Origin: a bacterium | GTDB taxonomy: Bacteria; Patescibacteriota; Minisyncoccia; Phycocordibacterales; DATDWN01 | Direction: 5' to 3' | DNA: 64,000 bases | NCBI GenBank assembly: GCA_037134875.1 | Contig: JBAXLH010000001.1 | Location: forward strand, 106,646 to 170,645 | The notes under the pieces: model-generated | What the model was told of the DNA's origin: nothing | Databases searched by the model: none | What the model saw: the letters and a program-made list of their open reading frames with translations, nothing else | Shown: positions 1 to 50,820 of the stretch, in pieces | Layout: every line of letters begins with the position of its first letter | Numbering within the stretch: the first letter of the stretch is position 1 | Position numbers and translations under genes: made by a program

Positions 1-2948
1 AAGACAGATTTCGACTTGTTCTCCTTGCAGTAGATCAGATTGGCTACAAAAATCTCATCAAACTTGTTACATATTCACACATCGAGGGTTTCTATTACAA
101 ACCACGACTCGACAGAGAACTGTTGGAAAAATATAAAGAAGGTTTGATTGCCATCTCGCCGTCATTTGCTGGAGATGTAGTCAAATCACTCACTCTTCGT
201 GACAAAGAAAAAGCTCTGGAAAAAGTGGAGTGGTACAAAAAAACATTTGGATCGGAAAATTTCTTTTTGGAAATCACTCATCATCCAGAAATAAAAGGCC
301 ACGAGGAAAAAATGAAAAACCTTGTCGATTTTGCCCGCGAAACAAATATAAATATAATGGCAGCACACGATGTGTACTATCTAGACCCAGCCGACCGGCT
401 CGCTCGCGAAACACTTATGGCAGTGCAAAACAACGCGGATATTTCTGACAAAATGAGCTCTGGCGACACCGAGGATTTTTCTTTTATTTCTCCAGAAAAA
501 GCAGAAGAATTTTTTGCGAGCCTACCAGATGCACTCCAAAACACTGAAAAAATAGCCGAGAGGTGCAATCTCGCACTCACACTCGGTAAATGGCTTTTCC
601 CGCAGTACATCGTGGAAAGTGGACTTTCTGCTGATGATGAGCTCCGCAAAATCACAGAGGAAGGAATAGCAAAGCGCGGAGTACCAGACACACCCGAGAC
701 TCGCGAGAGAATGAACTACGAACTCAAAGTCATTGGCGACAAAGGATATGCACCATACTTTCTGGTGGTGTCCGACCTCTTGCGATTTGCCAGGGAAAAA
801 GGAATTCTCTCAAACATTCGAGGTTCGGTGTCCGGCTCTCTTGTTACGTATCTCTCCGGCATTACAAACATCAACCCAATTGAATATGAAATTCCATTCG
901 AGCGATTTCTCAATCCCGATCGACCATCCGCTCCCGATATTGATATGGACTTTGCCGACGACAGACGTGACGAAATGATTGAATATGCACGAGAAAAATA
1001 TGGTGCAGACAAAGTTGCACAAATCGGAACATTTGGAACAATGGCTGCGCGCGGATCCGTGAGGGACGTGACACGCGCAATGGGACTTCCGTACGGAGTC
1101 GGAGACTCGATAGCCAAACTGATTCCGATGGGTTCACAAGGTTTTCCAATGACCATCGACAAAGCAATGGAAGATGTTGAGGAACTCAAAGAAAGATACA
1201 AAAATGAACCCGACGTCAAAAAGATTATTGATATGGCGAAAAAAATTGAAGGTTGCGCCAGACATATGGGAGTTCACGCAGCTGGTGTGGTGATTTCTCC
1301 GATGCCACTCACTGATATTGTACCGCTACAATACGATCCAAAAGGCGAAGGGAAAATTATCACGCAATACGATATGTATAGTGTGGACGAAAACAATGCC
1401 GGACTTTTGAAATTTGACTTTCTTGGTCTCAAAAACCTTTCAATCATCGCCGACACAATCAACCTCATCAAACATACAACTGGTGTAGTTGTTGACCCCG
1501 ACACAATGCCGATCAATGACAAAAAAACATTTCAGATGCTCGCCAAAGGAGACACGACTGACCTCTTTCAGCTCAATGGCGAAGGAATGACAAAATTTTT
1601 GGTTGATCTCAAGCCAAATACAATCCACGATATCAATGCCATGGTGGCACTCTACCGTCCTGGTCCAATTCAATTCATTCCCGACTACATCAAGCGAAAA
1701 CATAATCCGAAACTCATCACATATCTCGATCCAGCACTCGAACCGATTTTGAAAAAAACAAATGGAATTTTGGTGTACCAAGACGACCTCCTCATGATGG
1801 CACACAAACTCGCTGGTTATACTTGGGGTGAGGTAGACAAATTCCGCAAAGCCGTCGGTAAAAAAATCCCCGAAGAAATGGAAAAACAAAAAGAAAAATT
1901 TATAAACGGCTGTGTCGAACATTCCGGGTGGCCACTTAGGAAAGCACAGGAAATCTGGGGCTGGATCGAGCCCTTTGCGTCGTACGGTTTCAACAAAGCA
2001 CACTCGGTTTCCTATGGACGAGTGGCGTATCAGACTGCATACCTCAAAGCAAACTTTCCCGCAGAATATATGGCGAGTGTCCTCACACACGAGGCCGGCG
2101 ATGTAGACAAAGTCGCCGAATCAATCGCGGAATGTAAACGAATCGGCATTAGTATTTTGCCACCAGACATAAATGAATCGTTCAAGGATTTTACTGTTAT
2201 CAAATCAACCGGAGATGGCAAGGCAGATGCAATCCGTTTCGGACTCAAGACAATTAAAAACTTTGGCGAAGGAATTGCAGACTCTATTATTGCCGAGCGC
2301 AAAAAAAATGGACCGTTCACCAGTCTCTCAGAATTTCTCACTCGTGTGACAGACAAAAATCTCAACAAAAAATCTTTGGAGTCTCTCATCAAAGCCGGTG
2401 CACTCGATGCATTCAGTGACAGGCATACGCTCCTCCACAACCTCGACCGACTCCTGACATTTCACAAAGAAGAAAGCACAAAAGAGTCTGCTCAAGATTC
2501 CCTCTTTTCTCTTTTTGGTGGAGGTGGTCACTCAGAGCTAGCTCTAGAAAAAGCTCCGACGAGTAATCCGACTGATCAGCTCCTGTGGGAAAAAGAACTT
2601 CTGGGATTGTACATTTCTGGTCACCCACTCGACAGCTTCAAACAAAAACTTGCAACTCGTGACACAGATATCAAAAAAATAAAAGAGCGATCAAAAGATA
2701 AACAAACCGTCGTCTTTGGTGGCATTATTGAAGAAATGAAAGATATCGTCACAAAAAAAGGAGACAAAATGCTGTTCCTCCGTGTCGCTGATATGTCTGA
2801 CTCGATTGAGTGCGTGGTATTTCCAAAAGTTCTTGAGGAATTTCAAGATGTGCTCATTCCGGAAGCCTGTATTGTCATCAAAGGCACATTTTCTACACGC
2901 AATGAAGGCAAAAGTGTTATCGCGGAGAAAATAAAAGCTTTGGAATAA
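1..2948 (+). CDS. dnaE: DNA polymerase III alpha subunit (DnaE), 5'-truncated by window edge
   Basis: ORF open to position 1 in the same frame. Long DnaE-like protein with a C-terminal OB-fold region. Confidence 0.85.
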   Translation, partial: DRFRLVLLAVDQIGYKNLIKLVTYSHIEGFYYKPRLDRELLEKYKEGLIAISPSFAGDVVKSLTLRDKEKALEKVEWYKKTFGSENFFLEITHHPEIKGHEEKMKNLVDFARETNINIMAAHDVYYLDPADRLARETLMAVQNNADISDKMSSGDTEDFSFISPEKAEEFFASLPDALQNTEKIAERCNLALTLGKWLFPQYIVESGLSADDELRKITEEGIAKRGVPDTPETRERMNYELKVIGDKGYAPYFLVVSDLLRFAREKGILSNIRGSVSGSLVTYLSGITNINPIEYEIPFERFLNPDRPSAPDIDMDFADDRRDEMIEYAREKYGADKVAQIGTFGTMAARGSVRDVTRAMGLPYGVGDSIAKLIPMGSQGFPMTIDKAMEDVEELKERYKNEPDVKKIIDMAKKIEGCARHMGVHAAGVVISPMPLTDIVPLQYDPKGEGKIITQYDMYSVDENNAGLLKFDFLGLKNLSIIADTINLIKHTTGVVVDPDTMPINDKKTFQMLAKGDTTDLFQLNGEGMTKFLVDLKPNTIHDINAMVALYRPGPIQFIPDYIKRKHNPKLITYLDPALEPILKKTNGILVYQDDLLMMAHKLAGYTWGEVDKFRKAVGKKIPEEMEKQKEKFINGCVEHSGWPLRKAQEIWGWIEPFASYGFNKAHSVSYGRVAYQTAYLKANFPAEYMASVLTHEAGDVDKVAESIAECKRIGISILPPDINESFKDFTVIKSTGDGKADAIRFGLKTIKNFGEGIADSIIAERKKNGPFTSLSEFLTRVTDKNLNKKSLESLIKAGALDAFSDRHTLLHNLDRLLTFHKEESTKESAQDSLFSLFGGGGHSELALEKAPTSNPTDQLLWEKELLGLYISGHPLDSFKQKLATRDTDIKKIKERSKDKQTVVFGGIIEEMKDIVTKKGDKMLFLRVADMSDSIECVVFPKVLEEFQDVLIPEACIVIKGTFSTRNEGKSVIAEKIKALE

Positions 2949-2968
2949 AAGGAAACAAACTAAATTCT

Positions 2969-3149
2969 CCAAGACACGCATAAAGCCCTACTGGGGCTTT
3001 TGCTATGCTCGGAAATCAAGAAAACAATCGTCCTCACTCCAGAGCCTTCTCGCAAACTCGCTTTGCTCGCCCCTTCTTGCAGAGGGGTTGAGTGCTTCAG
3101 GCTTCTTTCCGTTCGTCGTTGTTTTCTAATTTCCTGCGCAATGTCTTGG
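2969..3149. repeat. ~180-nt structured intergenic element, copy 1 (candidate ncRNA or MITE-like element)
   Basis: Near-identical second copy at 50622-50801. 8-bp terminal inverted repeat ccaagaca/tgtcttgg. The internal hairpin aagccctactggggctt is replaced in copy 2 by attcgcttgctagcgaat, which is fully compensatory. Confidence 0.55.
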
Positions 3150-3243
3150 ATAATTCAGTTTGTTTCTTCAAATATCATAATTAATACAAAAAAAAGATCA
3201 CTGGGCGTACCATATGATCATTATTGTGTCCGCAGACACATAT

Positions 3244-4158
3244 CTATTTTAAGATTTTCGAATCGACTCCGGTCGTGTTGCAGATCCGGGCTTTCACATT
3301 GAACTTAGAAATTATGGATCGGAAATCGTCCTCGTGTACAAATCCGTACACAATTGCCACATTGGTTTTCCCTGTGGCTTGCATATCTCGGAGAGCTTTG
3401 GTGACAACATAGGCACTCCTCATCTCCGACAACGACGTAATAAGGGAACGTGTATTTGAAACCGGAAATTCCCTATTAACAAGTTTTGCCATAAGTGCAG
3501 TAAATGGCAGTGACTCGCCCGCCACAAAGTTTGCACTCGTGTCAGCTTCAATCTTTCTCCAATCATTTTGTGACGTCCATCTGCCACGCAACAATTCCAC
3601 AAGCTTTGGAACAGTCTGCATTGGAGATGTAACATCCACTCCCTGATCTCGCAAAAAGCTTGCGAGTGGAGAATTCTTTTCATATTTCAATCTTCCAAAT
3701 ATCTCCATGGCTTCTGCTACTGGAGAGAAACCATCGAGACTTGATCCTTCCATCAGGATCATTTCGTATTTATTTTTTTGAATGAAATCCGAAATGAGTT
3801 TTCTGCTTTGTGATGGATCAAACCGAACCGCCTGACCCGTAGTAGCATCCTCATGGATCTGCAAAAGAAAATCTATCGAACCTTTTGTCTCAGAATTCGA
3901 CAGTGCCTTGAATGAAGTACGAAGTCGTTCGCACTCATTAATTACATCAGATGCAAGCAGAGACTCTTGCGGAGATCTCTTGCTGACGACCTGCATAATT
4001 TCAATAATATAATCCAGCTCACGATCCAAATTGACCGCGCCTGTGGTTTGTTGTACCACTTCACAGACACCAACATCCGTCTGTTTGAAAAGTCTCGGAA
4101 TGTACACGACGGCAATCCCGAGTACTAGCAAACCTACAAAAATCTTTGCTTTTTTCAT
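3244..4158 (-). CDS. hypothetical membrane-anchored protein (N-terminal signal anchor)
   Basis: 304-aa ORF from MKKAKIFVGLLVLGIAVVY. Hydrophobic N-terminus. No recognisable catalytic motif. Confidence 0.45.
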   Translation of the reverse strand: MKKAKIFVGLLVLGIAVVYIPRLFKQTDVGVCEVVQQTTGAVNLDRELDYIIEIMQVVSKRSPQESLLASDVINECERLRTSFKALSNSETKGSIDFLLQIHEDATTGQAVRFDPSQSRKLISDFIQKNKYEMILMEGSSLDGFSPVAEAMEIFGRLKYEKNSPLASFLRDQGVDVTSPMQTVPKLVELLRGRWTSQNDWRKIEADTSANFVAGESLPFTALMAKLVNREFPVSNTRSLITSLSEMRSAYVVTKALRDMQATGKTNVAIVYGFVHEDDFRSIISKFNVKARICNTTGVDSKILK

Positions 4159-5998: not shown

Positions 5999-6054
5999 AA
6001 AATAAAAACAACCCAAAACTTTCACAATTTGGATGAGATTCGACGTTGAGAAAT

Positions 6055-6100
6055 AAAAAATACTCGGAGACGTACAAGAGTACGTTGACGAGTATTTTTT
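6055..6100. terminator. bidirectional rho-independent terminator between convergent thrS and gyrB (member of hairpin motif family)
   Basis: A-tract, then 12-bp outer stem aaaaaatactcg/cgagtatttttt enclosing inner hairpin acgtac-aaga-gtacgt, then T-tract. Confidence 0.55.
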
Positions 6101-6139
6101 ATTTCGAAACTAGAATATCGCCAAATTTGGAAGTTTTGG

Positions 6140-22032: not shown

Positions 22033-22245
22033 GAATTGACATGAGTTGATAAGCGTGTGGTTATCCACAGTTATCTTTTTTAAGACCGGACAGATTATTT
22101 TGAGAAGCGTACAATGGTTAGTGAGAGCTATCCCTCCTAACGGTCTTCGTTTTGGATATAAACAGCTAACTCTCTTTATTGAAAAAAAGAGCGTCTTTTT
22201 GCTGTTACCAACTAACCAATACTAAGCGGTCGACTTATATCGCTG

Positions 22246-23661
22246 ATGCGAACTCCGCGTCACGAATCTTTTATCGAAATCAATTCGACACTCTTTCATA
22301 TTATCCAGCTAGTTTATAACCCCATGATTAAAAACAGTCTAAAGATTGAGTACGTTCCTATCGACTCACTCCATCACGTGGAATACAACCCACGTATTAT
22401 CAACGAAACTACGAAAGCATCAGTACGCGCGAGTATTGAGATGCACGGTATACAAGACCCCCTCATCATCAACCGTGCCCCCGAACGCAAGGGCGGTATT
22501 ATCGGCGGCAACCTCCGCTACGAGGTCATGAAGGATCTCGGCTTCACCGAAGTGCCCGTTATTTTTGTCGACATTCCAGAACTCGAACGAGAGAAAGATC
22601 TGTGCTTGCGTCTCAATAAGGCCGTCGGAGAGTGGGACCTCATCTTACTCGCCGAATTCGATGAGTCCTTCCTAACCAATGTAGGCTTCAACAGCGAGGA
22701 GATTGATGAAATATTTCCGGTCGACGAGACTCCGACTGAGTTCTCGCTCAAGCACGAACTTGAAAAGATAGGTATAGACGGTGTGACCGTAAAGAAAGGC
22801 GACCTATACGATCTCGATGGCTCCCGGCTCTATGTCGGCGATTCAACCGTCGAGTCAGACATGCTCGCCCTCTTTGGTGAGCACAAAGCAGATATGTGTA
22901 TGACCGACCCGCCGTACGATCTTGCATACCTCCACGGTAAAAAGCGTAACGGCAAAGCGACCGAAGGGTTCGGGCTCAAGCGTGATCGTAAGTATCTCGA
23001 AACCGATGAGTTGCCGGATGACTTTACGGATTTGTGGATGGCCAATGTCGCTAAAATTCAAAAGCCCGACTTCTCGATTATTGTCTACGAAGCTCCGAAG
23101 AACCTGCGCACCATTTGGAACGCGCTCGAGGCTCACTGGAAGTACCGCAACACGATAGTCTGGACGATTCCGAATCGTGTGCAAGGATTTTCAGCCAAGC
23201 TCAAGTTCTTCAATAAGCACGACATCGCTGTTGTAGGGACTTCGGGTGAGGTCGCGCTCCATACCGAGCCGGAAGACAACTTGCTATTCCAAAACGAATA
23301 TGAGACAGCTCTGTTTGCCACCTCAGGTAGGCCGCATTGGGAGTCGTATGGAAAAGACAAGCGATACTGTCCGACCGATGTTATTGACCACGTAGCTGCC
23401 GATGAAAAAGCATCAGGGCAAGGCATCATCTTTGGAGTGAAGCCGCTCCCTATACTCATCCCGTACATTAAGGTGCTGACCAAGCGTGGTGACATCGTTG
23501 TTGAACCCTTTGGAGGAAGCGGGTCGACCCTCATCGCCTCAAACACTATCGGTCGTCGCTGCTTCATTATGGAGAAGGTGCCGACCTATGCTGAGGTCAT
23601 TCTGAACCGCTGGGAGAAGTTCTCGGGCAAGAAGCGGGTAAAGATCCATGCACAAGCGTGA
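22246..23661 (+). CDS. ParB-like nuclease domain / DNA methyltransferase (N4/N6, DPPY) fusion
   Basis: N-terminal ParB domain (IEYVPIDSL...GGNLRYEVM). Methyltransferase motif IV DPPY (MTDPPYDLAY) and motif I FGGSGST. Confidence 0.8.
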   Translation: MRTPRHESFIEINSTLFHIIQLVYNPMIKNSLKIEYVPIDSLHHVEYNPRIINETTKASVRASIEMHGIQDPLIINRAPERKGGIIGGNLRYEVMKDLGFTEVPVIFVDIPELEREKDLCLRLNKAVGEWDLILLAEFDESFLTNVGFNSEEIDEIFPVDETPTEFSLKHELEKIGIDGVTVKKGDLYDLDGSRLYVGDSTVESDMLALFGEHKADMCMTDPPYDLAYLHGKKRNGKATEGFGLKRDRKYLETDELPDDFTDLWMANVAKIQKPDFSIIVYEAPKNLRTIWNALEAHWKYRNTIVWTIPNRVQGFSAKLKFFNKHDIAVVGTSGEVALHTEPEDNLLFQNEYETALFATSGRPHWESYGKDKRYCPTDVIDHVAADEKASGQGIIFGVKPLPILIPYIKVLTKRGDIVVEPFGGSGSTLIASNTIGRRCFIMEKVPTYAEVILNRWEKFSGKKRVKIHAQA

Positions 23662-24544
23662 TCAGCAAACCACACTGATTAAAACCCTCGCTGAGGGATA
23701 CACCATAACCGCCGCCTGCAAGCGAGCGGGTGTCTCTCGCATGTTCTATAACCGGCACTACAAGACAGATCTTGAATTCCGAAAGAAAGTAGACCGCGCG
23801 TATGTACTTGGCAAGCAAGTGAATGACGACCGTGTGTTGTCTGTGTACATGAAGCAGATAAATGAGGCTAGGGACTGGCGGCCCATTAAATATTATCTAG
23901 AACATAACGTGGGACCATACATGCAAAAAAATACTCCCTCACCGCCTGCGGCGGGTATGCTCAGTAGAGTTGAGGCTGCAACGTCTGAAATAGAAAAGTA
24001 CACCCAGTTCATTCGCTGGAGTTCCATGACTGCTGAAGAGCGTGCGTGGCACGGTATTGAAACGCGAGAGCAGTTTTGTAAGGCATACCAAGTACCAAAC
24101 CTTGGCATGCTTGCAATCTGGACACAACGTAAAGACTTCGAGCCACGAGTTAAAACGCTTCGCGAAGAATGGGTCTTTTCTAAAACCAGTGAGATACTCG
24201 GTGGCGTATATACAGCCGCTAGCAATGGTGATCACAAAAGTCAGAAACTATGGCTAGAGCATGTGTATCACATGACCGAAAAGAAGGAGGAAAATGTTCC
24301 AGGCCAAGTAGTAATTGCGCCGGGTGATATTAGATTCCTCATTGAGTCACTACCCGAGCCTCTCAAAACGAAACACTATTCGAGACTGAGAGAGCTCCTC
24401 GACGACTCAGCTGCAGCTGCTCAAGCAGGGACGCTTAAGGACTATCAGGACGCAGGGATCTTGGATAAAAATGGAGAAATAATAAATGACCTCGAGGGCA
24501 AGGAGCGTGACATAAATCACAAGCTAGACATCTATGACATCTAG
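23648..24544 (+). CDS. hypothetical HTH protein (terminase-small-subunit/transposase-like N-terminal HTH)
   Basis: TITAACKRAGVSRMFYNRHY HTH-like segment. Otherwise unknown. Confidence 0.4.
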   Translation: MHKRDQQTTLIKTLAEGYTITAACKRAGVSRMFYNRHYKTDLEFRKKVDRAYVLGKQVNDDRVLSVYMKQINEARDWRPIKYYLEHNVGPYMQKNTPSPPAAGMLSRVEAATSEIEKYTQFIRWSSMTAEERAWHGIETREQFCKAYQVPNLGMLAIWTQRKDFEPRVKTLREEWVFSKTSEILGGVYTAASNGDHKSQKLWLEHVYHMTEKKEENVPGQVVIAPGDIRFLIESLPEPLKTKHYSRLRELLDDSAAAAQAGTLKDYQDAGILDKNGEIINDLEGKERDINHKLDIYDI

Positions 24545-24801
24545 CGTCTCTTACGAGGTTCACTAAAAAGGTTGAGCTGGCTGGAGGGAGGTGGTGGCTT
24601 CTGCCTCTTCTCAATCTGCCACAATAGCTGCAAGAGCTTGAGTAAGTAGTGCCATATGGCATAGGCCTCTCCGAGCGAAATATTGCGCCCTGTGGCCTCC
24701 TTGATGATCCGCCGAAGCTCGGTAGCGCTTTGCTTGGAGAGAATAGCCATAAGGCCATTCCAGCTTAGATCTGGAGGTTTGCGAAGTGGGTTGTCTACAC
24801 G

Positions 24802-25395
24802 CTACTTTGAGAGAGATTGAATATCTGCGCGAGCCTTTGTGATATCGTCAGTGACCTTCTGCTCATCTGCACGTAACTTAGTAGTTGTTACTTCTTTGAT
24901 CTGCCAACTAACTGCGTCGCCAGCCCAGAGACAGATATCGCTTGCCGCGTTATTGATATCCTCATTCCAATTACCGAGCGCATCGGGTGAAGTGCCGGAG
25001 TATAAGTTATCGGCTTCTTGATAGGCACTCATTGCGTTAGTGCCCGGATCATTCTTGAGGCAGGTATTGGTGCGGAATGAACCGAGCTGGCTTGCGGCCG
25101 AACTTGGATCGTTAAGCGCTTTCAGACCTGCGTTCGCATCTGCGTACTGCGTTGTGCCGAGCACAGTCTTGGCAGAGCTTAATAACGACACGTAGTGGTC
25201 GGTGCTTGCCGAAAGAATTGCAGCAACCTTTTGCTTATCTGGAGCAGACGATGTCGCGACTACTACAGGATTTTGCACGGGCGCACTTTCCTGTGCCTGC
25301 TTGATAGGCTGCGGCGTATTTAGACCAATTATAAGTAACAAAACAAAACCGAGAACAACTACTCCGACAACGGAGTAGAGAACTTTTTTAGCCAT
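24802..25395 (-). CDS. hypothetical secreted/membrane-anchored protein
   Basis: N-terminal TM helix VLYSVVGVVVLGFVLLLIIGL. GC-rich island cargo. Confidence 0.45.
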   Translation of the reverse strand: MAKKVLYSVVGVVVLGFVLLLIIGLNTPQPIKQAQESAPVQNPVVVATSSAPDKQKVAAILSASTDHYVSLLSSAKTVLGTTQYADANAGLKALNDPSSAASQLGSFRTNTCLKNDPGTNAMSAYQEADNLYSGTSPDALGNWNEDINNAASDICLWAGDAVSWQIKEVTTTKLRADEQKVTDDITKARADIQSLSK

Positions 25396-25560
25396 AAAAT
25401 CTAGCGGGATTTTAGATGGTGGGAACCCTCAGGTAATCAAAAGGCTCCTCGCCATTGCGATGAGAACCTTTCGGCCCCCACCCATACCGGTTTCCCGATA
25501 TGACCCGCTAGAGTGACTCTGACGAGGAGTCCTTTGATCTCTAGCGGGATTTGCAACCAT
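25396..25560 (-). promoter_or_regulatory. candidate structured 5' leader with triplicated 9-nt motif (mutually exclusive helices)
   Basis: tctagcggg at 25400-25408 and 25540-25548; its complement cccgctaga at 25505-25513. GC-rich nested helices between (ggtggg/cccacc, gggaacc/ggtttccc). The proximal motif abuts the start codon at 25395. Confidence 0.3.
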
Positions 25561-25698
25561 ATCCTAAGAATTTGACTTCCTAGGGGTTAGGTCGGCTTAT
25601 ATTCAATTGTGCAAGTACATGATAGCAGAAATTGCTATCGTTTGACCACCTTAGCTTAGCTTTGAGAGCTTGCAAAGTAGGTTATCTACTCCTCAATT

Positions 25699-26268
25699 TT
25701 AATGAAAAGTGACACCGCTCTTTTTGAGCTCATTACGTACCTCAGCATAGTTCGGAATAGTCTGTGATACGAGTTTCCAAAACTTCTTTGAATGATTAAA
25801 TTCTTTTAGGTGGCAGAGCTCGTGGACAATTATGTAATCAGATAGAGGCTTTGGTAAAAGTGCGATTTTATAGTTGAAATTAAGGTTACCTTTTCGAGAA
25901 CAGCTACCCCAACGCGTCTTCTGATTTTTGATATTGATCCGATTGAAATTAAACTCCCGTTTCTGATTGAAGTAGTTAACTCGATTTACTGCCAGTTTAT
26001 ATGCCTCGTCTTTGTACTTGAGGTAGTCCTCTTGGCTATACCTCGCAATTGCCTTACCCTTGAACTGCTTGAAAAAAGCAATTTTTGAGAAAAGCCATTC
26101 ACTTTTCTCATTAATGAATTTGTCGACAATGGTTTCTTTGAGATCAAAAGGGGTCGTGACCACAATGCTCCCATCACAGTACACAGCAAGGCGCATTCTT
26201 CGTGCCCGATGACTTTTTCGGAGAGTATAGGTAACTTGTTTATTTTCAAGTGCTATATGTTTCTTCAT
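25699..26268 (-). CDS. YgjP-like (DUF45) metal-dependent hydrolase
   Basis: WGSC...HELCHLKEFNHSKKFW (HExxH in DUF45 context). Immediately downstream of hsdR. Confidence 0.7.
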   Translation of the reverse strand: MKKHIALENKQVTYTLRKSHRARRMRLAVYCDGSIVVTTPFDLKETIVDKFINEKSEWLFSKIAFFKQFKGKAIARYSQEDYLKYKDEAYKLAVNRVNYFNQKREFNFNRINIKNQKTRWGSCSRKGNLNFNYKIALLPKPLSDYIIVHELCHLKEFNHSKKFWKLVSQTIPNYAEVRNELKKSGVTFH

Positions 26269-26270
26269 GG

Positions 26271-29177
26271 TTAGAATTTTTTGACCACAATATCGACCAG
26301 ACGGTTGAGATATTTATGAAAGTCGTCAACCTTAATTTTTTCTCTATATTCTTTAAGTACCAACTCTTGAACAATGCGCTTTACTTCTTTCAAGAATTCA
26401 TCACGTTTCGAGGACTCTTGCCAACCCTCATCGAGCACATCCTCAAGTCGTGCTGTCATATCCTTTATGAAGTCCCTGATCACGTCTTTATCTCCCGTGA
26501 TAAATTCCTCAGAGATAACAAACAGGCCATATTCATTGAGGGAATACCCGAGCTCCTTAGCCTCGTCTCCTTTTTTCTTTATATCTTCAAGAAGCCCTTG
26601 GTATCGCTTGATACGTTCCGATAAATCAATTTGATTTTGTTCAAACTCTTTCCTGATTGCTGAAAGTCGTTCACTAAACTTTTTATACGCAGGATTAGTA
26701 TCGACATTTATAGAGATTTCCTGCTTAAGCATTTTCTCAAGATTGAGAGCTTTCTCCTCATCATCCATCTTATTAAGACGCTCCATAACGTAAAGGTCGT
26801 TGACATTAAGCTCACGGAAATTCTTAGTGATGCCTTCGTAGTCCACACGTTGCTGGATAAGAAGTTTAACTTTCTCGCCAAACTCAGCAAGAAGTTCTGC
26901 ATCAGTTGTTCTCGCTCCGTATTCTTTGTCAAACGCAATATAAACACTGGCAAGCCACTCAAATGCTCGGATATGTGTTTTCAGGAAGGGGTCTGGCGAG
27001 AGTACCTCAAACAAAAGCTTAAGACGGGCATATTTTTCACGGAAAAACTTCTGCTTGTCTGTATTCTCCGCAAAAATCTTCAAACAGCGGCGCAGGTTTT
27101 CAATTGAAGGATCTTCAATATTTACACCCACGAATACATCCATAATTTCGTCAAGTACGTCGACGAATTCTTCTTTGAGTTTATCGATATTGATCATCGC
27201 AGAATCAACCACACTCTCGTCAAAATTGAGTGCCTTGTGAAGACTCTTGGTAATGCCGTAATAGTCAATTACTTTTCCAGCACCCTTGTTTGGATACACG
27301 CGGTTTGTGCGTGCGATTGCTTGTAGAAGATTATGATCCCAAAGCGGCTTGTCGAGGTACATCACCTGTTCAATTGGGGCATCAAAGCCAGTGAGAAGCA
27401 TGTCGCAGACAAGCAAGAATTTGAGCGGACTATTTGGATCCTTGAATTCATTTATGAGCTTTTCTCGCTTAGCTTTAGTCGTATTGTATTTCTGAAGGTC
27501 CTCAGCACTTGTGTTGGGATCGCCAGCAGAATAGATAACCGCAGACCACTCTTTCGGAATTAACTCATCCAGTATTTCTTTGTATTTTGCCGTCGCTTCA
27601 CGGTCATAGCAGACAACTTGAGCCTTGAAACCAGCAGGCTCTACATAAAGCTTAAAGTGCTCGACTATATCTTGAGCAACAGCACGCATACGCTTATCGA
27701 GTTTAACGATTGCTTCTTTCTTTCCATATTTCTTTGCAACTTGATCCTTCTCTTTATCTGAGAGTCCTTGGGTCAATTCTTCAAACTGCTTGTCTATTTT
27801 CTCCTCATCAATAAAGAATTTTGAGAGTCTAGCCTCATAGGTAACAGGGAGTGTGGCTCCGTCTTCTACGGCTTGCTGAATAGAATAATAATCCAAGTAA
27901 CGTTCGCCCTCCTCGCCGAAGTTACGATGAGTATTAAGTGTTGCCTTATCGATAGGAGTACCGGTAAAGCCAAAGAAGAACGCGTTCTTTAAGGAACTGC
28001 GGAGATTAATTGCCGAAACGCCTTCATTATCTCTATGTGCCTCGTCTGAAAGTACGATAATGTTCTCGTCGAGGTTTTCTGTTGTATTTCCAAGTTCAGA
28101 GAATTTCTGGATTGTAGAAATGAAGATTCCTCTCTCGGAAGACTTTATCTTCTTCTCAAGATCTTGACGCGAATCCACACGAACGACGTTCTTGCCACCA
28201 CAATTTACGAAAGTCTCGTAAATCTGATCATCAAGATCTATACGATCCACTAAGATAAAAATCTTTGGGTTTTTGAGCGCCTTATCAAAGCGTAGCTTCC
28301 AAGCCGTAAAGAACATGGTGAGCGATTTGCCCGACCCTTGAGTATGCCAAATGAGCCCACGCTTCTGGTCACCTCCAGCAACTCGCTCAACAATCTTGTT
28401 TGTTGCTCTAAGTTGCTGGTATCGTGCAATTTTCTTTACAGTGCGCTCCTTTTCTTTTTCAAAAAGAATAAAATTCCTGACTATATCGAGAAGCCTCTCT
28501 TTTGAGAGTAGGGCTGTAAGCGTCATTTCCAACTCTCCCCCTGTTTGTTTTTGAAGCTCTTCATCACGCCAACGTAGAAAGTACTGCGCAGGTGCGTAAG
28601 TAGCTCCGTAGACGGTTTGAAGGCCATCTGTAGCTATGTTGAAGCAGTTAGGCCAAAACAATTTAAAAGCATTTCGCTCATATCGCTTTATCTGTCCAAC
28701 AGCATTGGAATAGTTCACGCTGCTTGCTGCAGTAGGGCTCTTTGCCTCTATATCTACCAAAGGCAAACCATTCAGGAAGACCATTATGTCTGGGCGGATA
28801 TTCTCGGAGTTTCCCTCGAAGTAGAACTGATTGGTAGCGACAAACTGGTTGTTATCGGTTGTCTCAAAATCAACGACGTAGTAGTCGCGCATCTTGCCAG
28901 TCTGAGAATCTTTCAAGTTCACACCATCACGAAGCATTTTAAGAAATGCCTCGTTATTATCTATTTTCTTCACCTCTCGGACAATAGAAATAGCCTCATC
29001 TTCCTGTATTCCGTTAATTCGCTTAACGGCCTCAAGAAGTAGCGGAGTGATAATGTATTCGTTCTCAAACTCACGGAGCTTCGAAAACTCCTGCGATTTG
29101 ATGTATTTGTAACCAAGCTTCTCCTGGAGAAACTTAATGACGTGATTTTCTACTGTGTGTTGTTCGTTGAATTTCAT
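26271..29177 (-). CDS. hsdR: Type I restriction enzyme R subunit
   Basis: 968 aa. SF2 helicase motifs including the DEAH box (VLSDEAHRDNEG). N-terminal nuclease region. Confidence 0.9.
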   Translation of the reverse strand: MKFNEQHTVENHVIKFLQEKLGYKYIKSQEFSKLREFENEYIITPLLLEAVKRINGIQEDEAISIVREVKKIDNNEAFLKMLRDGVNLKDSQTGKMRDYYVVDFETTDNNQFVATNQFYFEGNSENIRPDIMVFLNGLPLVDIEAKSPTAASSVNYSNAVGQIKRYERNAFKLFWPNCFNIATDGLQTVYGATYAPAQYFLRWRDEELQKQTGGELEMTLTALLSKERLLDIVRNFILFEKEKERTVKKIARYQQLRATNKIVERVAGGDQKRGLIWHTQGSGKSLTMFFTAWKLRFDKALKNPKIFILVDRIDLDDQIYETFVNCGGKNVVRVDSRQDLEKKIKSSERGIFISTIQKFSELGNTTENLDENIIVLSDEAHRDNEGVSAINLRSSLKNAFFFGFTGTPIDKATLNTHRNFGEEGERYLDYYSIQQAVEDGATLPVTYEARLSKFFIDEEKIDKQFEELTQGLSDKEKDQVAKKYGKKEAIVKLDKRMRAVAQDIVEHFKLYVEPAGFKAQVVCYDREATAKYKEILDELIPKEWSAVIYSAGDPNTSAEDLQKYNTTKAKREKLINEFKDPNSPLKFLLVCDMLLTGFDAPIEQVMYLDKPLWDHNLLQAIARTNRVYPNKGAGKVIDYYGITKSLHKALNFDESVVDSAMINIDKLKEEFVDVLDEIMDVFVGVNIEDPSIENLRRCLKIFAENTDKQKFFREKYARLKLLFEVLSPDPFLKTHIRAFEWLASVYIAFDKEYGARTTDAELLAEFGEKVKLLIQQRVDYEGITKNFRELNVNDLYVMERLNKMDDEEKALNLEKMLKQEISINVDTNPAYKKFSERLSAIRKEFEQNQIDLSERIKRYQGLLEDIKKKGDEAKELGYSLNEYGLFVISEEFITGDKDVIRDFIKDMTARLEDVLDEGWQESSKRDEFLKEVKRIVQELVLKEYREKIKVDDFHKYLNRLVDIVVKKF

Positions 29178-30409
29178 ATGGTTCTTTTCTTACCGGTCAG
29201 TAGATCTTGCATGAGGCCTTTTTTGAGAAGAGATAATTTTGATTTCAGTTCCTGATTAGTCGCAATCCTTTCTTCAATCGAAGAAAGGATGCTAGCAATT
29301 TTTTTCTGCTCCTGTATGGACGGAACAGGGACTTTATAACTTTTCATATAAGAAAGATTCAAGTGTGAGATATGCCCCTGAATTCCACCACTACGCAGTA
29401 ATTCATATTGGCTTTTCAAAAAAAGCCATAGATACTCGGAATCAATTTCTGTATTCGGTTCAATAGCAGCGGCGTTTTGTGTTGTGCATGCCTCGATTTT
29501 AAGGAGTGCAGTCTGTCCCCGTGTCTTTCCTTGACCATACATTGCAACAAGGATCGTTCCTGGCTGATATCTTTTTAGCCGATAGTCCTGAACTGCTTTA
29601 TCAGAAATATGCACCTCTGCCCGTTCAATTTTCTTATTTACAATCTCTCCCGTTTTGATAAAAGGATTATTGCCTTCGTAATACTCTTTTTTGCCTGTAG
29701 ACGGCGTGGTGCCGGTTGAGATAGTAGCTAGTTCTTCTAAATTTCTAAAAACAAATTTGGTTTTACCTGTTCCACTAGTAAAGAGATCTTTCATTAGCCC
29801 GCGCTTGAGTTTATCTGTCGCTTCAATAACTTCCTGTGTTTTTGCAATATCCTTATCAACTGTTCCCAAAATCTCTGCAATTTTCTGCTGTTCTTTTTTT
29901 GATTCCGGAATCAAGACTTGAATGGATTCAAATTTGCCTTTTGAAATAGTGTAGCGCGTTGCACCAACAGACGCTTTTTCAAATTGTCTAAGTACATCTC
30001 TAGCATTACAAAAATACGCTCGAAAATTAATGTCGATCTTATTGTCGTACTCCTCGTTAAATCTCAGTCGCGCCAAATGATAACTAAAGAGAGTATTCGG
30101 CAAATCCTTAGCCACTACAGCTGAGTGGCCAATATCATCAGGCGTTTCAGAAGAGGGGGTGAATAACATATCTCCAACCCTGACCTGTGCTACCTTAATT
30201 TCACTATCGCTGGCAGTCACTTCCATAAAATTAATGGAGTCATCAATAAATCCATGCTTGTAGACATCCATGTAGTTAACGAGCCTCACAGGCTTTTCGT
30301 CCCGCGCTATCTTTTTATCCACTCCACCGGTCTTAAACTCTCCCAAATCTGAAAGGTTTTTTATAACCCAACCACGCGGAATATTCTGTTGTTTCGTGTT
30401 AGTTGTCAT
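29174..30409 (-). CDS. hsdS: Type I R-M specificity subunit (two target-recognition domains)
   Basis: 411 aa, duplicated TRD architecture with conserved central/C-terminal helices. 4-nt overlap with hsdR. Confidence 0.8.
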   Translation of the reverse strand: MTTNTKQQNIPRGWVIKNLSDLGEFKTGGVDKKIARDEKPVRLVNYMDVYKHGFIDDSINFMEVTASDSEIKVAQVRVGDMLFTPSSETPDDIGHSAVVAKDLPNTLFSYHLARLRFNEEYDNKIDINFRAYFCNARDVLRQFEKASVGATRYTISKGKFESIQVLIPESKKEQQKIAEILGTVDKDIAKTQEVIEATDKLKRGLMKDLFTSGTGKTKFVFRNLEELATISTGTTPSTGKKEYYEGNNPFIKTGEIVNKKIERAEVHISDKAVQDYRLKRYQPGTILVAMYGQGKTRGQTALLKIEACTTQNAAAIEPNTEIDSEYLWLFLKSQYELLRSGGIQGHISHLNLSYMKSYKVPVPSIQEQKKIASILSSIEERIATNQELKSKLSLLKKGLMQDLLTGKKRTI

Positions 30410-31229
30410 CTCGTTTTTCTACGGCAATTTCTTGCTGAATTTGCTGCAATTGTTTTTTGACCATCGCGTCCTTTTCATTCTTTTTTGCTTCTTCTATTTT
30501 CTGATCGAGAATCAATTCAATAGAGAGTTTGATAGGCGCAAAATATCGTAAACATTCTTCTTCAGTTAATTCGTGTACACCCTTGCTCAAAATAGAGTAG
30601 ACACCTTTCATTTCCACAAGTTGGCTAGGGAGAAAAGTTTTCAATGTCTCAACCTTATCCAGCATTCTTTGTTTTTTGAAATCGATTTCGCTTATTTTAG
30701 TAGCGCCAGCATTGTTCGTGTATGTTTCAAGAATTAATTTCTCAAAAATCCTTCTGAGATAAACAAAAGAGCCGGCACCAGCCCCATGGGAAACCAGTCC
30801 AATTGCCTTTTTGAGATTTTTTAGGTCCTCAACTGGCAAAACCTTGTCATACTTCTTACCAATCTCTGCGAACTGTAAATCTGCTAACGATGGCCATTGT
30901 CCTATCTTCATGACGATTTCTCTATTTCGAAAAACTATAAAGCGTATTACATCGTTATCCTTCCGCTTACACTTCAAGGTAATGAGAAAGAACCCAACAT
31001 CAACACTATTACCTTTTTCTGCTGACCAATCGCTCCATGTATCGGTTGAATCAATGCTGATGGAATAGGTCGTTTCCGTACTATTCTTTGCGCTATACGC
31101 ATCCACGTCACCGCCGAAGGCATTTTTTTCTAGCTCACTAATTGACACAACCTCGTATAAAGGAGTTTCAAAATAGAAATCGTGTTTGCTCATTATTTTA
31201 GCCTCTCCCAACTGTAGTTCGTTAGCCAT
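30399..31229 (-). CDS. hypothetical protein embedded between hsdM and hsdS
   Basis: 276-aa ORF overlapping hsdS by 11 nt. No catalytic motif recognised. C-terminal half helical (VSHGAGAGSFVYLRRIFEKLI...). Confidence 0.5.
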   Translation of the reverse strand: MANELQLGEAKIMSKHDFYFETPLYEVVSISELEKNAFGGDVDAYSAKNSTETTYSISIDSTDTWSDWSAEKGNSVDVGFFLITLKCKRKDNDVIRFIVFRNREIVMKIGQWPSLADLQFAEIGKKYDKVLPVEDLKNLKKAIGLVSHGAGAGSFVYLRRIFEKLILETYTNNAGATKISEIDFKKQRMLDKVETLKTFLPSQLVEMKGVYSILSKGVHELTEEECLRYFAPIKLSIELILDQKIEEAKKNEKDAMVKKQLQQIQQEIAVEKRDDN

Positions 31230-31233
31230 AAAT

Positions 31234-32979
31234 TTAATACTTCAATTCCTTTAGATACCCTTCGACCTTTGTATCAATTGCCGTACGCTCCTTTTCGAGA
31301 GTAGCTAACTCCTTGCGTACAGCAGACACATCAATAATTTCCTCTTTATCACCGTTCTCAATGTAGCGGCGAACGTTGAGGTTGTACTCATTCGTTTCTA
31401 TCTCCTTCAGGTCAACGACGCGGGCATAACCATCAATATCCTTAAAACCATCGTAAGTTTTAACAATTTTCTGAATGTCCTGATAACGGAGCGAATTCTG
31501 ATTCTTACCCTCAGAGAAGTCCTTCTCGGCATCTACGATCAACACTTTACCTTTGTGACCTCCCGCCTTGTTCTTGTTGAAAATGATAATGGCCGCTGGA
31601 ATGCCCGTGCCGTAGAAGAGCTTTGACGGAAGTGCAATCACAGCTTCGATGAGGTCATTCTTAAGTATTTGTTCCCGAATACGGCCTTCGGAACCACCTC
31701 GGAAGAGGACACCGTGCGGGAGCACAATACCGGCACGGCCATTAGAGTTCATCGACTTGATGATGTGGAGCACAAAGGCGTAGTCAGCGTTTTTGTTTGG
31801 TGGCAGTTCGTACCCGTCGATGCGACCGTATTTATCGGACTTGAACATCTCGTACTCCCAGTCGTTGATTGAGTAGGGTGGGTTTGCAACGCAAATATCA
31901 AATGTCTTGAGACTACCGTTTGGGTTCAAAAACTGCGGGTTCGCGAGTGTGTCGCCCCGCTGAATGTCGGCGCTATCAAGTCCGTGGAGAAACATGTTGA
32001 TCTTGGCGATCGCATAAGTGCCAATATTAATCTCCTGGCCATAAAGATAGAGCGTGCGCGCAATCTGCTCGCCCTCTTTCTCTTTCAGATGATGAAAAGC
32101 CTCCAAAAGGAATCCGCCTGAGCCGACCGTGGGGTCGTAAATATGATCTTTCTTGTGTGGCTTAAGTATCTGTATGATGACGCGTTCAACTTCACGCGGT
32201 GTATAAAACTCACCGCCTTTCTTTCCGGCGTCAGCCGCAAACTGTTTGATGAGGTATTCGTACGCATCGCCAAGGACATCGGAGTTGATGTATGTGTCGC
32301 CAAAGTTGTATTGAGAGAAGTGGTTGATGAGGCGCTGAGTCGTTTCGTTCGGGAAGCGGTCCTTGTTGGCAAAGTCGAGGTCATCAAAAATCCTGTCGAG
32401 CTTCGGACTATTGGCGTTGGCAAGCTTTTCAAAAATCTCATTGAGTTTCTTGCCGATGTTTTCTGCTTTTTCCTCAACAACCGACCAACGACACTCCTTC
32501 GGCACCTGAAAGCGATGGTTGTAGTCGGCGCGAGCGATCGTTTCGTCTTTGAACTCTTCCATTACCTTCGCGTACTCTTCATCCCAGACGTCGCTGATGC
32601 GTTTGAAAAAGAGAAGGCCAAAGATGTACTTCTTGTAGTCAGAACTGTCGATTTTGCCGCGGAGAATATCCGCACTCTTCCAGAGGAACTGCTCGAGCTG
32701 TGGAAGAGTGAGCTTGCTACCCATCTTGTCGACTATTGCTCGTATATCTTCAGGGCGATATTTACGATCCCCGCGTTTACCGGCACGCATGGGTACTAAA
32801 ATGCCCTCCTTTTCCCAGTTACGGAGGGTGTCTGGATGGATATTAAAGATTTCAGCGACCTGTCCTATTGAAAGGAGGTCGGGCATTTCTTTGAGTTTTG
32901 CTTGTATATCTTTGCGCATATTGTTAAGTACTATCCTATCGCGGGCTAAATATAATGTCAAGCGTTCATAGGTTATCAT
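31234..32979 (-). CDS. hsdM: Type I R-M methyltransferase subunit with N-terminal MerR/excisionase-type HTH extension
   Basis: N6-adenine methyltransferase motifs (NPPY: VANPPYS) and HsdM N-domain. The first ~75 aa (LLSIGQVAEIFNIHPDTLRNWEKEGILVP...KYRPEDI) match a MerR/HTH_17-like domain. Confidence 0.85.
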   Translation of the reverse strand: MITYERLTLYLARDRIVLNNMRKDIQAKLKEMPDLLSIGQVAEIFNIHPDTLRNWEKEGILVPMRAGKRGDRKYRPEDIRAIVDKMGSKLTLPQLEQFLWKSADILRGKIDSSDYKKYIFGLLFFKRISDVWDEEYAKVMEEFKDETIARADYNHRFQVPKECRWSVVEEKAENIGKKLNEIFEKLANANSPKLDRIFDDLDFANKDRFPNETTQRLINHFSQYNFGDTYINSDVLGDAYEYLIKQFAADAGKKGGEFYTPREVERVIIQILKPHKKDHIYDPTVGSGGFLLEAFHHLKEKEGEQIARTLYLYGQEINIGTYAIAKINMFLHGLDSADIQRGDTLANPQFLNPNGSLKTFDICVANPPYSINDWEYEMFKSDKYGRIDGYELPPNKNADYAFVLHIIKSMNSNGRAGIVLPHGVLFRGGSEGRIREQILKNDLIEAVIALPSKLFYGTGIPAAIIIFNKNKAGGHKGKVLIVDAEKDFSEGKNQNSLRYQDIQKIVKTYDGFKDIDGYARVVDLKEIETNEYNLNVRRYIENGDKEEIIDVSAVRKELATLEKERTAIDTKVEGYLKELKY

Positions 32980-33067
32980 AGGTCTAAACCTTAGCTTGCT
33001 ATGTAAAATAAGGGTAATTTGGCTATCAACAGGTGTCCTGGACTCCCTAGAGCCTTTACGTCATTGA

Positions 33068-34360
33068 TTGATGTATATGGAAACAAAGCAATTGGAGGCC
33101 CTCCGGTACTGCCTCTACGCACGCAAAAGTACCGAAGCAGAGGATAAACAGGCCCTTTCAATAGAGTCGCAGGTAAAGGAGATGCAAGTGCTCGCCGAGC
33201 GGGACGGGCTCCATATCGTAGAGATAAAGCGAGAGTCACACTCCTCCAAGGAGGTAGGCCAGCGGCCGGTATATAACCAGATGCTCGAGGACCTACGCTC
33301 ACAGAAGTTCAATGCAATACTCACATGGGCTCCGGATCGGTTGAGCCGCAATGCCGGAGACTTGGGGTCGGTCGTAGACCTCATGGACCAGAAGCTGCTG
33401 CATGAGATACGCACCTACGGGCAGAAGTTTACCAACAACCCGAATGAGAAGTTTTTGCTGATGATACTCGGGAGCCAAGCGAAACTTGAGAACGATAACA
33501 AGGCGGTGAATGTTAAGCGTGGATTGCGCACACGATGCGAGATGGGGTGGAGGCCCGGCGTTGCACCAACCGGATACTTAAACGAAAAGCACGTTGATAA
33601 AAAGTGCCAATGTAGGGTTGATCCAAAGCGCGGACCGGTCATCAAACAGATGTTTGAAAAAGTAGCCAATGAACAGTGGAGTGGGCGCAAGCTATATCGC
33701 TGGTTGAGAGAAATCGACTTCAAGACGCATCGCGGCAAGCCGTTGGTGCTGGCGAATGTGTACATAATTTTGCGAAACCCTTTTTATTACGGCGACTTTG
33801 AATACCCGGTCGGTGGAGGCAAGTGGTACACAGGCAAGCACACGCCAATCATTGATAAGGAGTTGTATACAAAAGTGCAAATGACACTGAACGCGAACTT
33901 TATACCCAAAACTGAGAGTAAAGAGTTTGCCTTTACCAAGCTCATACGATGCGGACACTGCGGCTCGGGCATATCCGCAGATGAGAAGTTCAAGAAGTTA
34001 AAAGACGGCGGTGTAAACAGGCACGTGTACTACTTCTGCACCAAGGCTCGGAATATAGACTGCAAGAATCCGGCCATAAATGAGCCGGGTCTGATCGAGG
34101 AGCTTATAGGTCTCATGGATAAGGTCAACATGGACGAACTAGGCATACGAACCCGGATAGAGGATGAAATAAAACGGTTTAACAAATTTAGGTCAGGCGT
34201 ACTTGGACACAAGCAAGACAAAATAGAGATCGACGTAGATGTAAGAAATTACACCAAGTACCTATTGAGAGAAGGGACGCTTATAGAGAAGCGCGAACTG
34301 CTCGGATGCCTTCAAAGCAAACTATTTCTGAATGACAAAAAAATCAGAATGGATAATTAA
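33068..34360 (+). CDS. large serine recombinase (integrase) 1
   Basis: Resolvase catalytic domain (YCLYARKSTEAED...SIESQ), recombinase domain and zinc ribbon (CGHCGS...YYFC). Confidence 0.85.
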   Translation: MMYMETKQLEALRYCLYARKSTEAEDKQALSIESQVKEMQVLAERDGLHIVEIKRESHSSKEVGQRPVYNQMLEDLRSQKFNAILTWAPDRLSRNAGDLGSVVDLMDQKLLHEIRTYGQKFTNNPNEKFLLMILGSQAKLENDNKAVNVKRGLRTRCEMGWRPGVAPTGYLNEKHVDKKCQCRVDPKRGPVIKQMFEKVANEQWSGRKLYRWLREIDFKTHRGKPLVLANVYIILRNPFYYGDFEYPVGGGKWYTGKHTPIIDKELYTKVQMTLNANFIPKTESKEFAFTKLIRCGHCGSGISADEKFKKLKDGGVNRHVYYFCTKARNIDCKNPAINEPGLIEELIGLMDKVNMDELGIRTRIEDEIKRFNKFRSGVLGHKQDKIEIDVDVRNYTKYLLREGTLIEKRELLGCLQSKLFLNDKKIRMDN

Positions 34361-35309: not shown

Positions 35310-35351
35310 AATCTGCGACCGACGTGTCTCAGTCACCTGACTTAGTATATG

Positions 35352-35553
35352 TTGGCTGTGTCTCCTGAACAAAATCCGAACTTTTTTCCAAACTAATCCG
35401 ACTGAGGATTAATCTGCGCGCCTCGCCCGCTCCCTTCGGTCGCGGGAGCAAAAACCAAAAATTTTCCTTACCTTTCTTATTTTCTTCGGCGGGGGGTGTG
35501 GGGGGAGCCGACAAAAAATGGAAAGGAAATTTTTGGTTTTGCTTCGCCGCTAC
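35352..35553. repeat. inverted repeat A (202 bp), left copy
   Basis: Near-identical inverted copy at 38588-38789. Outer end is ttggctg. Confidence 0.85.
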
Positions 35554-35819
35554 AGACTACGAAATGAACATTTACATTATATCATTTGTGGTTCTTTGGA
35601 GTTGTTCATTTCTCCGTCCTTGCGGCGATACGAGGCGCTTCCTCTCCGCGTTTGGTGATAGCTTGAAACTTTGTGCCTCCGACCGAGTTTAGTGGTACCT
35701 CACAAAGCGGATTGTGCTTGGCACAAACAAATCTTATTGTGCTTGCCCCGCCCGCCCTGTGCGCGCACAAATCCCCGCCGTTTTTAGGAAATATTATAAA
35801 ACGGCGGGGATTGCCTCCC

Positions 35820-36686: not shown

Positions 36687-36688
36687 AA

Positions 36689-37447: not shown

Positions 37448-37448
37448 A

Positions 37449-38315: not shown

Positions 38316-38320
38316 AAAAT

Positions 38321-38527: not shown

Positions 38528-38587
38528 ATCCACAAGTATACCACTTCCAATTACATTATACACCAATATTATAGTATAATGTAATAG

Positions 38588-38914: not shown

Positions 38915-38998
38915 TATGATGAGTACATCATTCAAAACAAAGTTTTGCGAGCCAATCTTGAAGCGATAATTATCAATATTTAACATAAACCTTTTTCT

Positions 38999-50801: not shown

Positions 50802-50820
50802 GAAAGATTCCCTCGACTTT

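Follow-up and report, generated by a model that had tools for sequence, protein, structure and literature searches.

The window, as we call the whole 64,000-nucleotide stretch of DNA analysed here, carries two copies of an intergenic element that belongs to a repeat family designated F1. Copy A (2969-3149) is located between two convergent genes, dnaE and the gene of a 319-aa protein without a Pfam match, and copy B (50622-50801) fills the spacer between ctpA and rplI, where it is antisense to both genes. An initial annotation had described the two as near-identical and in the same absolute orientation. Both copies were indeed found there on the same strand: the 150-nt core (3000-3149 and 50652-50801) is 99% identical with a single C/T difference, and the 15-nt left end TCCAAGACACGCATA is common to both without a mismatch. 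When the window was searched with a 34-nt core probe, two matches were obtained, one in each copy (0 expected by chance). The 8-bp terminal inverted repeat reported at first (CCAAGACA/TGTCTTGG) is present and reaches about 12 bp (TTTTCCAAGACA/TGTCTTGGAAAA) in most F1 copies, whose size ranges from 161 to 190 bp. The GC content of the element is 50%, compared with 41.6% for the genome.

The two copies differ in a side hairpin of 17-18 nt, which lies between the left end and the core and is AAAGCCC-tact-GGGGCTTT in copy A (type A) and ATTCGC-ttgcta-GCGAAT, at 50635-50652, in copy B (type B). As the initial annotation had claimed, the two hairpins share no sequence and both are fully paired; each stands on a conserved 3-bp base, GCA/TGC. 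Its spelling of type A was right with regard to the pairing and wrong in the right arm, which is GGGGCTT rather than gggctt. The internal GC stems that it listed were also seen in the predicted folds.

Two other interpretations of the copies were rejected. The only open reading frame across the element is a TTG-started frame, and a coding role for this 100-aa ORF (3000-3302) was dismissed because the frame is broken in the homologous copy of another organism (locus L014, see below). A reading of the two direct copies as attL and attR sites bounding a 47.6-kb segment with serine recombinases was abandoned because this segment contains mostly housekeeping genes and copies also occur on other contigs. 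Among the other features of the window are a defence/mobile island at about 22200-40600 (Table 1) and a LOOT RNA (Rfam RF03000; 70.5 bits versus a gathering score of 46.4) on the minus strand at 25462-25593.

Table 1. Positions of the parts of the two F1 copies and of the genes of the defence/mobile island in the window
Feature	Position	Strand	Remarks
Copy A, left locus-specific arm	2952-2967	+	GAAACAAACT then AAATTC; pairs with 3151-3166; 4 nt 3' of the dnaE stop (2946-2948)
Copy A, conserved left end including terminal inverted repeat	2968-2981	+	TCCAAGACACGCAT; identical in copy B and L015; one change each in L016 and L014
Copy A, type A side hairpin	2978-3003	+	GCA/TGC base and variable stem AAAGCCC/GGGCTTT (2982-3000); -14.1 kcal/mol
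Copy A, core and right terminal repeat	3000-3150	+	TGTCTTGGA at 3142-3150; an invariant helix of 20 pairs and GC-rich hairpins at the apex are predicted
Copy A, right locus-specific arm	3151-3166	+	TAATTC then AGTTTGTTTC; complement of 2952-2967
Copy B, left locus-specific arm	50604-50617	+	AAAGTCGAG then TAAAC; upstream of the rplI start (50572, minus strand); pairs with 50807-50820
Copy B, conserved left end	50618-50634	+	TTTTCCAAGACACGCAT
Copy B, type B side hairpin	50631-50655	+	GCA-T-ATTCGC-ttgcta-GCGAAT-TGC; -11.6 kcal/mol; same hairpin in L015
Copy B, core, right terminal repeat and GAAAG	50652-50806	+	TGTCTTGG at 50794-50801
Copy B, right locus-specific arm	50807-50820	+	ATTCC then CTCGACTTT; abuts the ctpA stop (50821-50823, minus strand)
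ParB-domain DNA methylase	22246-23661		Defence/mobile island
Type I restriction-modification, hsdR	26271-29177		Island
Type I restriction-modification, hsdS	29174-30409		Island
Type I restriction-modification, hsdM	31234-32979		Island
Two large serine recombinases	33068-34360, 38999-40537		Island
EcoO109I-type endonuclease and its methylase	36689-38315		Island
tRNA gene	40478-40548		Island

Distribution of F1 in the host genome and in relatives

The 20-nt right end was used as a query for further copies in JGI metagenomes and species-representative genomes. Locus L016 has a copy with the type A hairpin, 3' of an S1-domain gene and in sense orientation, and L015 has one with the type B hairpin, antisense, in the spacer between ileS and a recO-like gene. 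A complete fifth copy was found on L040, a longer contig of the window's MAG, in the spacer between rpsO and an NYN gene; it is in sense orientation, with one loop change in hairpin A and a more diverged core. The copy of L014, which is 79% identical and lies in the greA-to-lysS spacer of a different organism (that of L014 and L037), carries a third hairpin (type C, AATCGC-tggt-GCGATT). Fragments at contig ends were observed in a third organism (L006) and in L018, and the L040/L018 copy was counted once. Matches at L004, L005, L007-L013, L017 and L019-L023 were discarded as chance 20-mer matches, several of which were inside ORFs.

Proteins beside the L015, L016 and L018 copies have accessions of the window's MAG (MEI6842991 to MEI6843523, by exact-sequence look-up), and L040 supplied a complete fifth copy; thus, at least five F1 copies reside in one genome, at unrelated intergenic sites. 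The density is two copies in the 64 kb of the window and five in approximately 105 kb of the MAG examined (sum of locus lengths). All F1 sites are intergenic and 3' of genes, and the orientation relative to the flanking genes is mixed across copies, in agreement with the initial annotation. Several assemblies end precisely at the element, a behaviour typical of repeats. The homologues of RplI and DnaE place the host in the Patescibacteria, the matches being labelled Paceibacterota, Zambryskibacteria or Parcubacteria. A profile search with nhmmer found no further diverged F1 copies in about 330 kb of fetched loci, and there was no F1 match in phage and plasmid collections or viral contigs. No presence/absence polymorphism was seen within the species; every contig of the strain carries the copies.

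The orthologous sites of relatives are short. The ctpA-rplI spacer is 248 nt in the window versus 42 nt in L026-29 (L9 76% identical) and 37 nt in L030, and the spacer 3' of dnaE is 295 nt in the window versus 35 nt in L035 and 6 nt in L036. The relatives share the gene order around the two window sites, and the short spacers at the orthologous sites indicate that the element is an insertion. The ctpA-rplI spacer of L024 contains an insert of about 95 nt (3838-3935, CCCAA...TTGGG) that is weakly palindromic and was rejected as a family member, as it is not significantly like F1 or F2 (z of at most 2.6 against F1; fold z -2.1). In L036, the closest DnaE relative (85% identical), a diversity-generating retroelement consisting of an RVT_1 reverse transcriptase and bAvd (2169-3532) is located directly 3' of dnaE, at the position of copy A.

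Sister families F2 and F3 and the side hairpin

Two sister families, F2 and F3, were recognized, neither of which was found in the window. F2 has members in three related Patescibacteria, at L037 (4270-4480, in a proS-like-to-mreB spacer), L034 (4331-4530) and L026 (about 1548-1695). The L037 and L034 members are 70% identical over 159 nt (E 2e-14). That of L034, which is located at the dnaE 3' site of a relative, is decayed (z -1.4 and -2.7); its spacer has no significant similarity to F1, the homology being with L037 and L026. The ends of F2 are TTTTCAGAGACAC...GTGCTCTGAAAA, the former of which agrees with TTTTCCGAGACAC, the end of the L016 F1 copy, at 12 of 13 positions. The layout is that of F1: the left end is followed directly by a side hairpin whose stem differs entirely among the members (GCTTTTC/GAAAAGC versus AAGTACTC/GAGTACTT) and whose loop, C(A/T)GC, is constant. 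F2 also has GC-rich central hairpins and locus-specific outer inverted repeats, and it folds with its flanks at z of about -7.

The F3 family occurs in the window's own MAG, at L040 (about 3371-3481) and L016 (about 3840-3915, minus strand). Its arrangement is like that of F1. The core measures about 90 nt, the outer inverted repeats are 17-20 bp long, and the inner right end CGCAATGTTCCAAAAA resembles the F1 counterpart. Beside the L040 copy of F3 is a solo F1-like right end (ACCTGCGCAATGTCTTAAAAA, 3474-3505). Elsewhere on L040, at 1100-1400, a region of dense strong hairpins (-129 kcal/mol over 300 nt) lies beside a tRNA gene and includes ACTTTTTC-tgct-GAAAAAGT, a hairpin similar to the F2 and F3 side hairpins.

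In the L016 F3 copy, the side hairpin (ATATTCGC-CTGCTG-GCGAATT) shares 19 positions out of 21 with that of F1 type B (ATATTCGC-TTGCTA-GCGAATT). Hairpin A was found at three loci and hairpin B at two; because both recur, the hairpin variants are a property of the sub-lineage and not of the site. Given the near-match between F3 and type B, the A/B swap in otherwise 99% identical copies is best explained by module exchange between families; it looks like the exchange of a ready-made hairpin with a sister family rather than stepwise mutation. A likeness of the dnaE-proximal AAAGGCCCCTACT of L035 to hairpin A was set aside as a coincidence, hairpin A being one that recurs at other loci. The B-like hairpins (copy B, L015 and L016 F3) are exactly the three antisense elements, the other eight being sense (1 in 165 if independent, and noticed post hoc), and on contigs with two elements these were co-oriented in all four cases (P = 1/16, also post hoc).

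Predicted folds and compensatory changes

Because the unique flanks form an inverted repeat, the element and its flanks are predicted to fold into one long, imperfect hairpin on either strand. The predicted RNA folds of the copies with flanks had z values from -6.3 to -8.2, and the predicted single-stranded DNA fold had -48 kcal/mol (z -7.4). In a covariation test, nine of 60 pairs had double-sided changes versus 3.7 +/- 1.3 in shuffles, and none of 500 shuffles reached nine, on a basis of six F1 sequences and with the proviso that related sequences can beat shuffles without structural constraint. A control with slid partners had such changes in 0-1 pairs. Across the F1 family, five of the nine pairs of the side hairpin are altered on both sides; read directly from the sequence, hairpins A and C are separated by two double pair changes and B and C by one. 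In the diverged L040 copy, an internal helix (columns 85-86/139-140) is still paired via double changes. The centre of the L014 copy, on the other side, has an 18-nt deletion and an uncompensated indel, and a between-species comparison revealed that the ends of the element are better conserved than the middle. The covariation shows that the predicted hairpin shape of F1 is maintained. Template switching within quasi-palindromes could also yield paired changes without selection. The initial claim of selection on structure and not on sequence has to be divided: it applies only in part to the A/B difference, for which a ready-made module appears to have been exchanged, and it is in line with the compensatory changes among hairpins A, B and C, in the internal helix of L040 and in the sister families.

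Covariation of this kind might reflect selection at the RNA level, in which case F1 would be a structured RNA module acting in the transcript (as a 3'-UTR or terminator extension, an RNase III substrate, an mRNA stabiliser or an sRNA), spread and kept for this function. The element is directly 3' of stop codons and would be co-transcribed with the upstream gene at most sites, and besides the strong predicted folds and the compensatory changes, hairpins A and C, where the copy is sense to the upstream gene, resemble small terminators (A-tract, stem, TTTT). Moreover, all four mismatches in the outer stem of the L016 F3 copy are A.C on the element strand and G.U on the strand transcribed with the neighbours. 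However, an antisense orientation to both neighbours is seen in two of the six F1 copies, the orthologous sites of relatives are empty, and the L014 centre tolerates the deletion and the indel mentioned above. A whole-window scan with Rfam 15 at gathering thresholds identified no family at the element, only a spurious 8-bit lncRNA match appeared in 2900-3260 at E<=10, and the F2 element of L026 had no Rfam match either. No sigma-70-like promoter was detected in or beside either copy on either strand. Since both strands fold about equally and G.U counts have no clear bias, RNA and single-stranded DNA are not separable as the level at which the shape is maintained. We consider such a module unlikely to be the explanation of F1; an RNA role is compatible with mobility and would be secondary, that is, co-opted. 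The autonomous small RNA gene offered in the initial annotation is not supported, given the lack of an Rfam match and of a promoter, the mixed orientation to neighbours and the absence from orthologous loci.

Insertion sites and flanking inverted repeats

Each window copy is flanked by an inverted repeat that the initial annotation had missed, GAAACAAACT/AGTTTGTTTC (2952-2961/3157-3166) around copy A and AAAGTCGAG/CTCGACTTT (50604-50612/50812-50820) around copy B. Flank inverted-repeat scores were 11-16 in all six full F1 copies (13 for copy A), and scores of at least 11 were obtained at 10 of 11 insertions when F1, F2 and F3 were pooled. Random window positions, which served as the null, scored 5.2 +/- 1.3, with P(>=11) = 0.003. 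The flank repeats differ from locus to locus, so that the target palindromes have no common sequence, and at several sites, for example L014, L026 and the L040 F3 copy, they border directly on the element, leaving a small loop remnant or none. Uninterrupted A-stem-loop-stem-T palindromes with arms of 13-31 nt are common 3' of genes in the window. One example of the hairpin type that is occupied elsewhere is located at 6045-6110, between the convergent thrS and gyrB genes (31-nt arms, 84% complementary, 4-nt centre). It is simplest to assume that the element is placed in the loop or centre of hairpins of the terminator type.

Target-site duplications, which had been expected for a MITE, were not borne out: no direct duplication was consistent at the five loci examined. 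Possible duplications read from the sequence, AATTC at copy A, AATT at L014 and TA at L015, need different element boundaries at each site, and a TA duplication was rejected as it fits L014 and L015 only.

The closest relative at ctpA-rplI, L026, has an empty site that reads TAA-GTAGTCG-GTCGACTT-AAGATGGTTTTGTGGTAG, whereas the window at the same site has TAA-AAAGTCGAG-(about 200 nt)-CTCGACTTT-GACTAGTTTTTTGTGGTAG. An unbroken palindrome of L026, AGTCG-GT-CGACT, is located exactly where the window has AAAGTCGAG, the insert and CTCGACTTT. According to this alignment, both flank arms exist unbroken in the relative and the element lies between them; ctpA-rplI in L026 is the one site at which the flank palindrome was seen to pre-exist. 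Short hairpins are present at the corresponding places of L030 and L035. The site of the L026 F2 copy is empty in the window (17-nt spacer) and in L024 (57 nt), and that of the L016 F3 copy is empty in L006 (43 nt), in each case with no comparable palindrome. This absence carries little weight because the proteins are only 65-85% identical and the spacers are too diverged to align.

It could also be argued that the inverted flanks were produced by the insertion itself, for example by fold-back or template-switch synthesis copying one flank inverted, a mechanism not described for bacterial repeats. Inverted repeats at nearly all insertions, some of them abutting the element, the three empty spacers without a palindrome and the missing direct target-site duplication would be in line with such a reaction. 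However, the sole alignable site already has both arms as an unbroken palindrome, the hairpins of L030 and L035 are at corresponding positions, long unbroken palindromes are common in this genome, and the divergence of the relatives weakens the testimony of their palindrome-free spacers. An origin of the flanks in the insertion is therefore improbable in our judgement, and placement of F1 at the centre of existing hairpins is preferred below.

Comparison with known repeats and mobile elements

MITEs have been defined by Delihas (2011, PMC3184786). F1 shares with them a size under about 400 bp, the lack of a transposase ORF, terminal inverted repeats, dispersed copies, empty versus filled sites and a stem-loop (PMC3184786), and departs from them in having no consistent direct target-site duplication. 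Like the classical MITEs (Correia/NEMIS, ERIC, Nezha, Chunjie and RUP), it is shorter than 200 bp, intergenic and has a very stable predicted stem-loop. In contrast to these, each F1 copy occupies the centre of an unrelated palindrome and has a modular side hairpin, and the scans revealed no parent IS whose ends match.

REPINs, which are mobilised by Y1 RAYT/TnpA-REP, resemble F1 in being small, non-coding and extragenic, in forming a long hairpin of inverted halves with a variable yet paired part, and in lacking a classical target-site duplication. Their variable spacers keep the hairpin form, and compensatory changes are common (PMC3337134, PMC3116915). They are about 90 nt long, are present in tens to hundreds of copies and consist of two short REPs around a variable spacer, whereas F1 has a conserved 165-nt interior, varies in the internal side hairpin and the outermost stem, was seen in about five copies and has no short REP-like consensus. 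A RAYT (Y1/HUH) gene was seen neither in the surveyed ORFs of the window nor in the annotated loci.

REP palindromes are insertion targets of IS elements from five families (PMC1525189). IS1397/ISKpn1 (IS3) and IS621, ISPa11 and ISPpu9/10 (IS110) are like F1 in having a palindromic extragenic target; they are autonomous and target repeated REPs with a species-specific consensus, whereas F1 is non-coding and each of its target palindromes is different in sequence. The latter points to shape recognition or to selection for terminator loops. SPRITE is associated with intrinsic-terminator structures at gene ends (PMC3184786, PMC10969869). It is itself terminator-like, whereas F1 sits within the hairpin, between the two arms. 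Group IIC introns are also terminator-associated; their insertion point is downstream of the hairpin, and they either carry a reverse transcriptase gene or require such an enzyme. With regard to the bridge RNA of IS110 and the omega or reRNA of IS200-IS605, no DEDD recombinase or TnpB/IscB gene is present in the window, where the neighbours of F1 are dnaE, the gene of the 319-aa protein, ctpA and rplI.

Discussion

Our results suggest, with a probability of about 0.65, that F1 is a non-autonomous MITE/REPIN-like palindromic repeat located at hairpin centres in a Paceibacteria-like Patescibacterium, that it is moved in trans, and that the A/B swap is a module exchange. The MITE-like insertion put forward in the initial annotation is well matched by at least five copies at unrelated intergenic sites, empty orthologous sites, assembly breaks and ends that are better conserved than the middle. 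In all likelihood, then, F1 is not a new RNA gene but selfish mobile DNA, of a type already known in broad terms.

Under this interpretation, F1 would be moved by an enzyme encoded elsewhere in the genome or since lost. The enzyme would recognize the tips of hairpins or cruciforms by structure and not by sequence, probably on single-stranded DNA, and recognition of structure would account for both the unrelated targets and the missing target-site duplication. The targets would be the A-stem-loop-stem-T palindromes, which may serve as terminators in this genome; an insert that folds back would reunite the terminator arms, and its insertion would be tolerated. Copies A and B would have come to differ in their hairpins via exchange with a sister family.

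No DDE or Y1 transposase and no reverse transcriptase was found among the window ORFs surveyed or in the Pfam annotations of related loci. The only recombinases of the window are the two large serine recombinases inside the restriction-modification island, and the annotated loci of the same MAG have a Xer-like tyrosine recombinase only. There was no longer element sharing the 20-nt right end, as the genome and metagenome scans returned MITE-sized copies and chance matches. We infer that F1 has more in common with single-strand or site-specific systems (IS200/IS605-RAYT, IS110) than with MITEs of the DDE type, because of the lack of target duplication, the unrelated hairpin targets, the subterminal hairpin and the co-orientation. 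GC skew followed the coding strand and was thus no guide to the direction of replication.

A wider proposal, which is tentative and somewhat doubtful, is that F1, F2 and F3 form a 'hairpin-homing' superfamily of Patescibacteria, whose members would insert at the tip of any long enough DNA hairpin by shape and without target duplication. The exchangeable side hairpin, with its variable stem and a loop of about YTGCTR or CWGC, might then be the handle for the enzyme, for which an HUH/Y1-type nuclease acting on lagging-strand DNA or a reverse-transcriptase system, such as the DGRs common in these bacteria, would be candidates; alternatively, the insertion reaction would create the inverted flanks. 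Finally, it is very improbable that F1 is a domesticated structural repeat at the DNA level, kept by the host as the place where a nucleoid, gyrase-like or recombination protein would bind, a role suggested for BIMEs, since only about five copies were seen, close relatives are without the element, one F2 copy is visibly decayed and no partner protein can be named for the candidate site, even though the repeat is exclusively intergenic, highly conserved between copies and co-oriented on shared contigs (4/4), and REP/BIME repeats bind host proteins (PMC1525189).

Patescibacteria have very small genomes, and neither literature searches nor a search by terms in a 2024 review on the MITEs of prokaryotes turned up an account of MITE-like repeats in them. 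Repeats of the F1 type break metagenome assemblies of these organisms, and they lengthen 3' UTR hairpins and may thereby alter termination or mRNA stability. Recombination between direct repeats such as the two in the window, 47.6 kb apart, can delete the segment between them. If F1 proves to be ordinary selfish DNA, it would count as a helpful annotation and not as a discovery. The three hairpin families occur apparently only at the centres of unrelated palindromes and without target duplication, which suggests structure-specific integration and, if true, would be mechanistically interesting.
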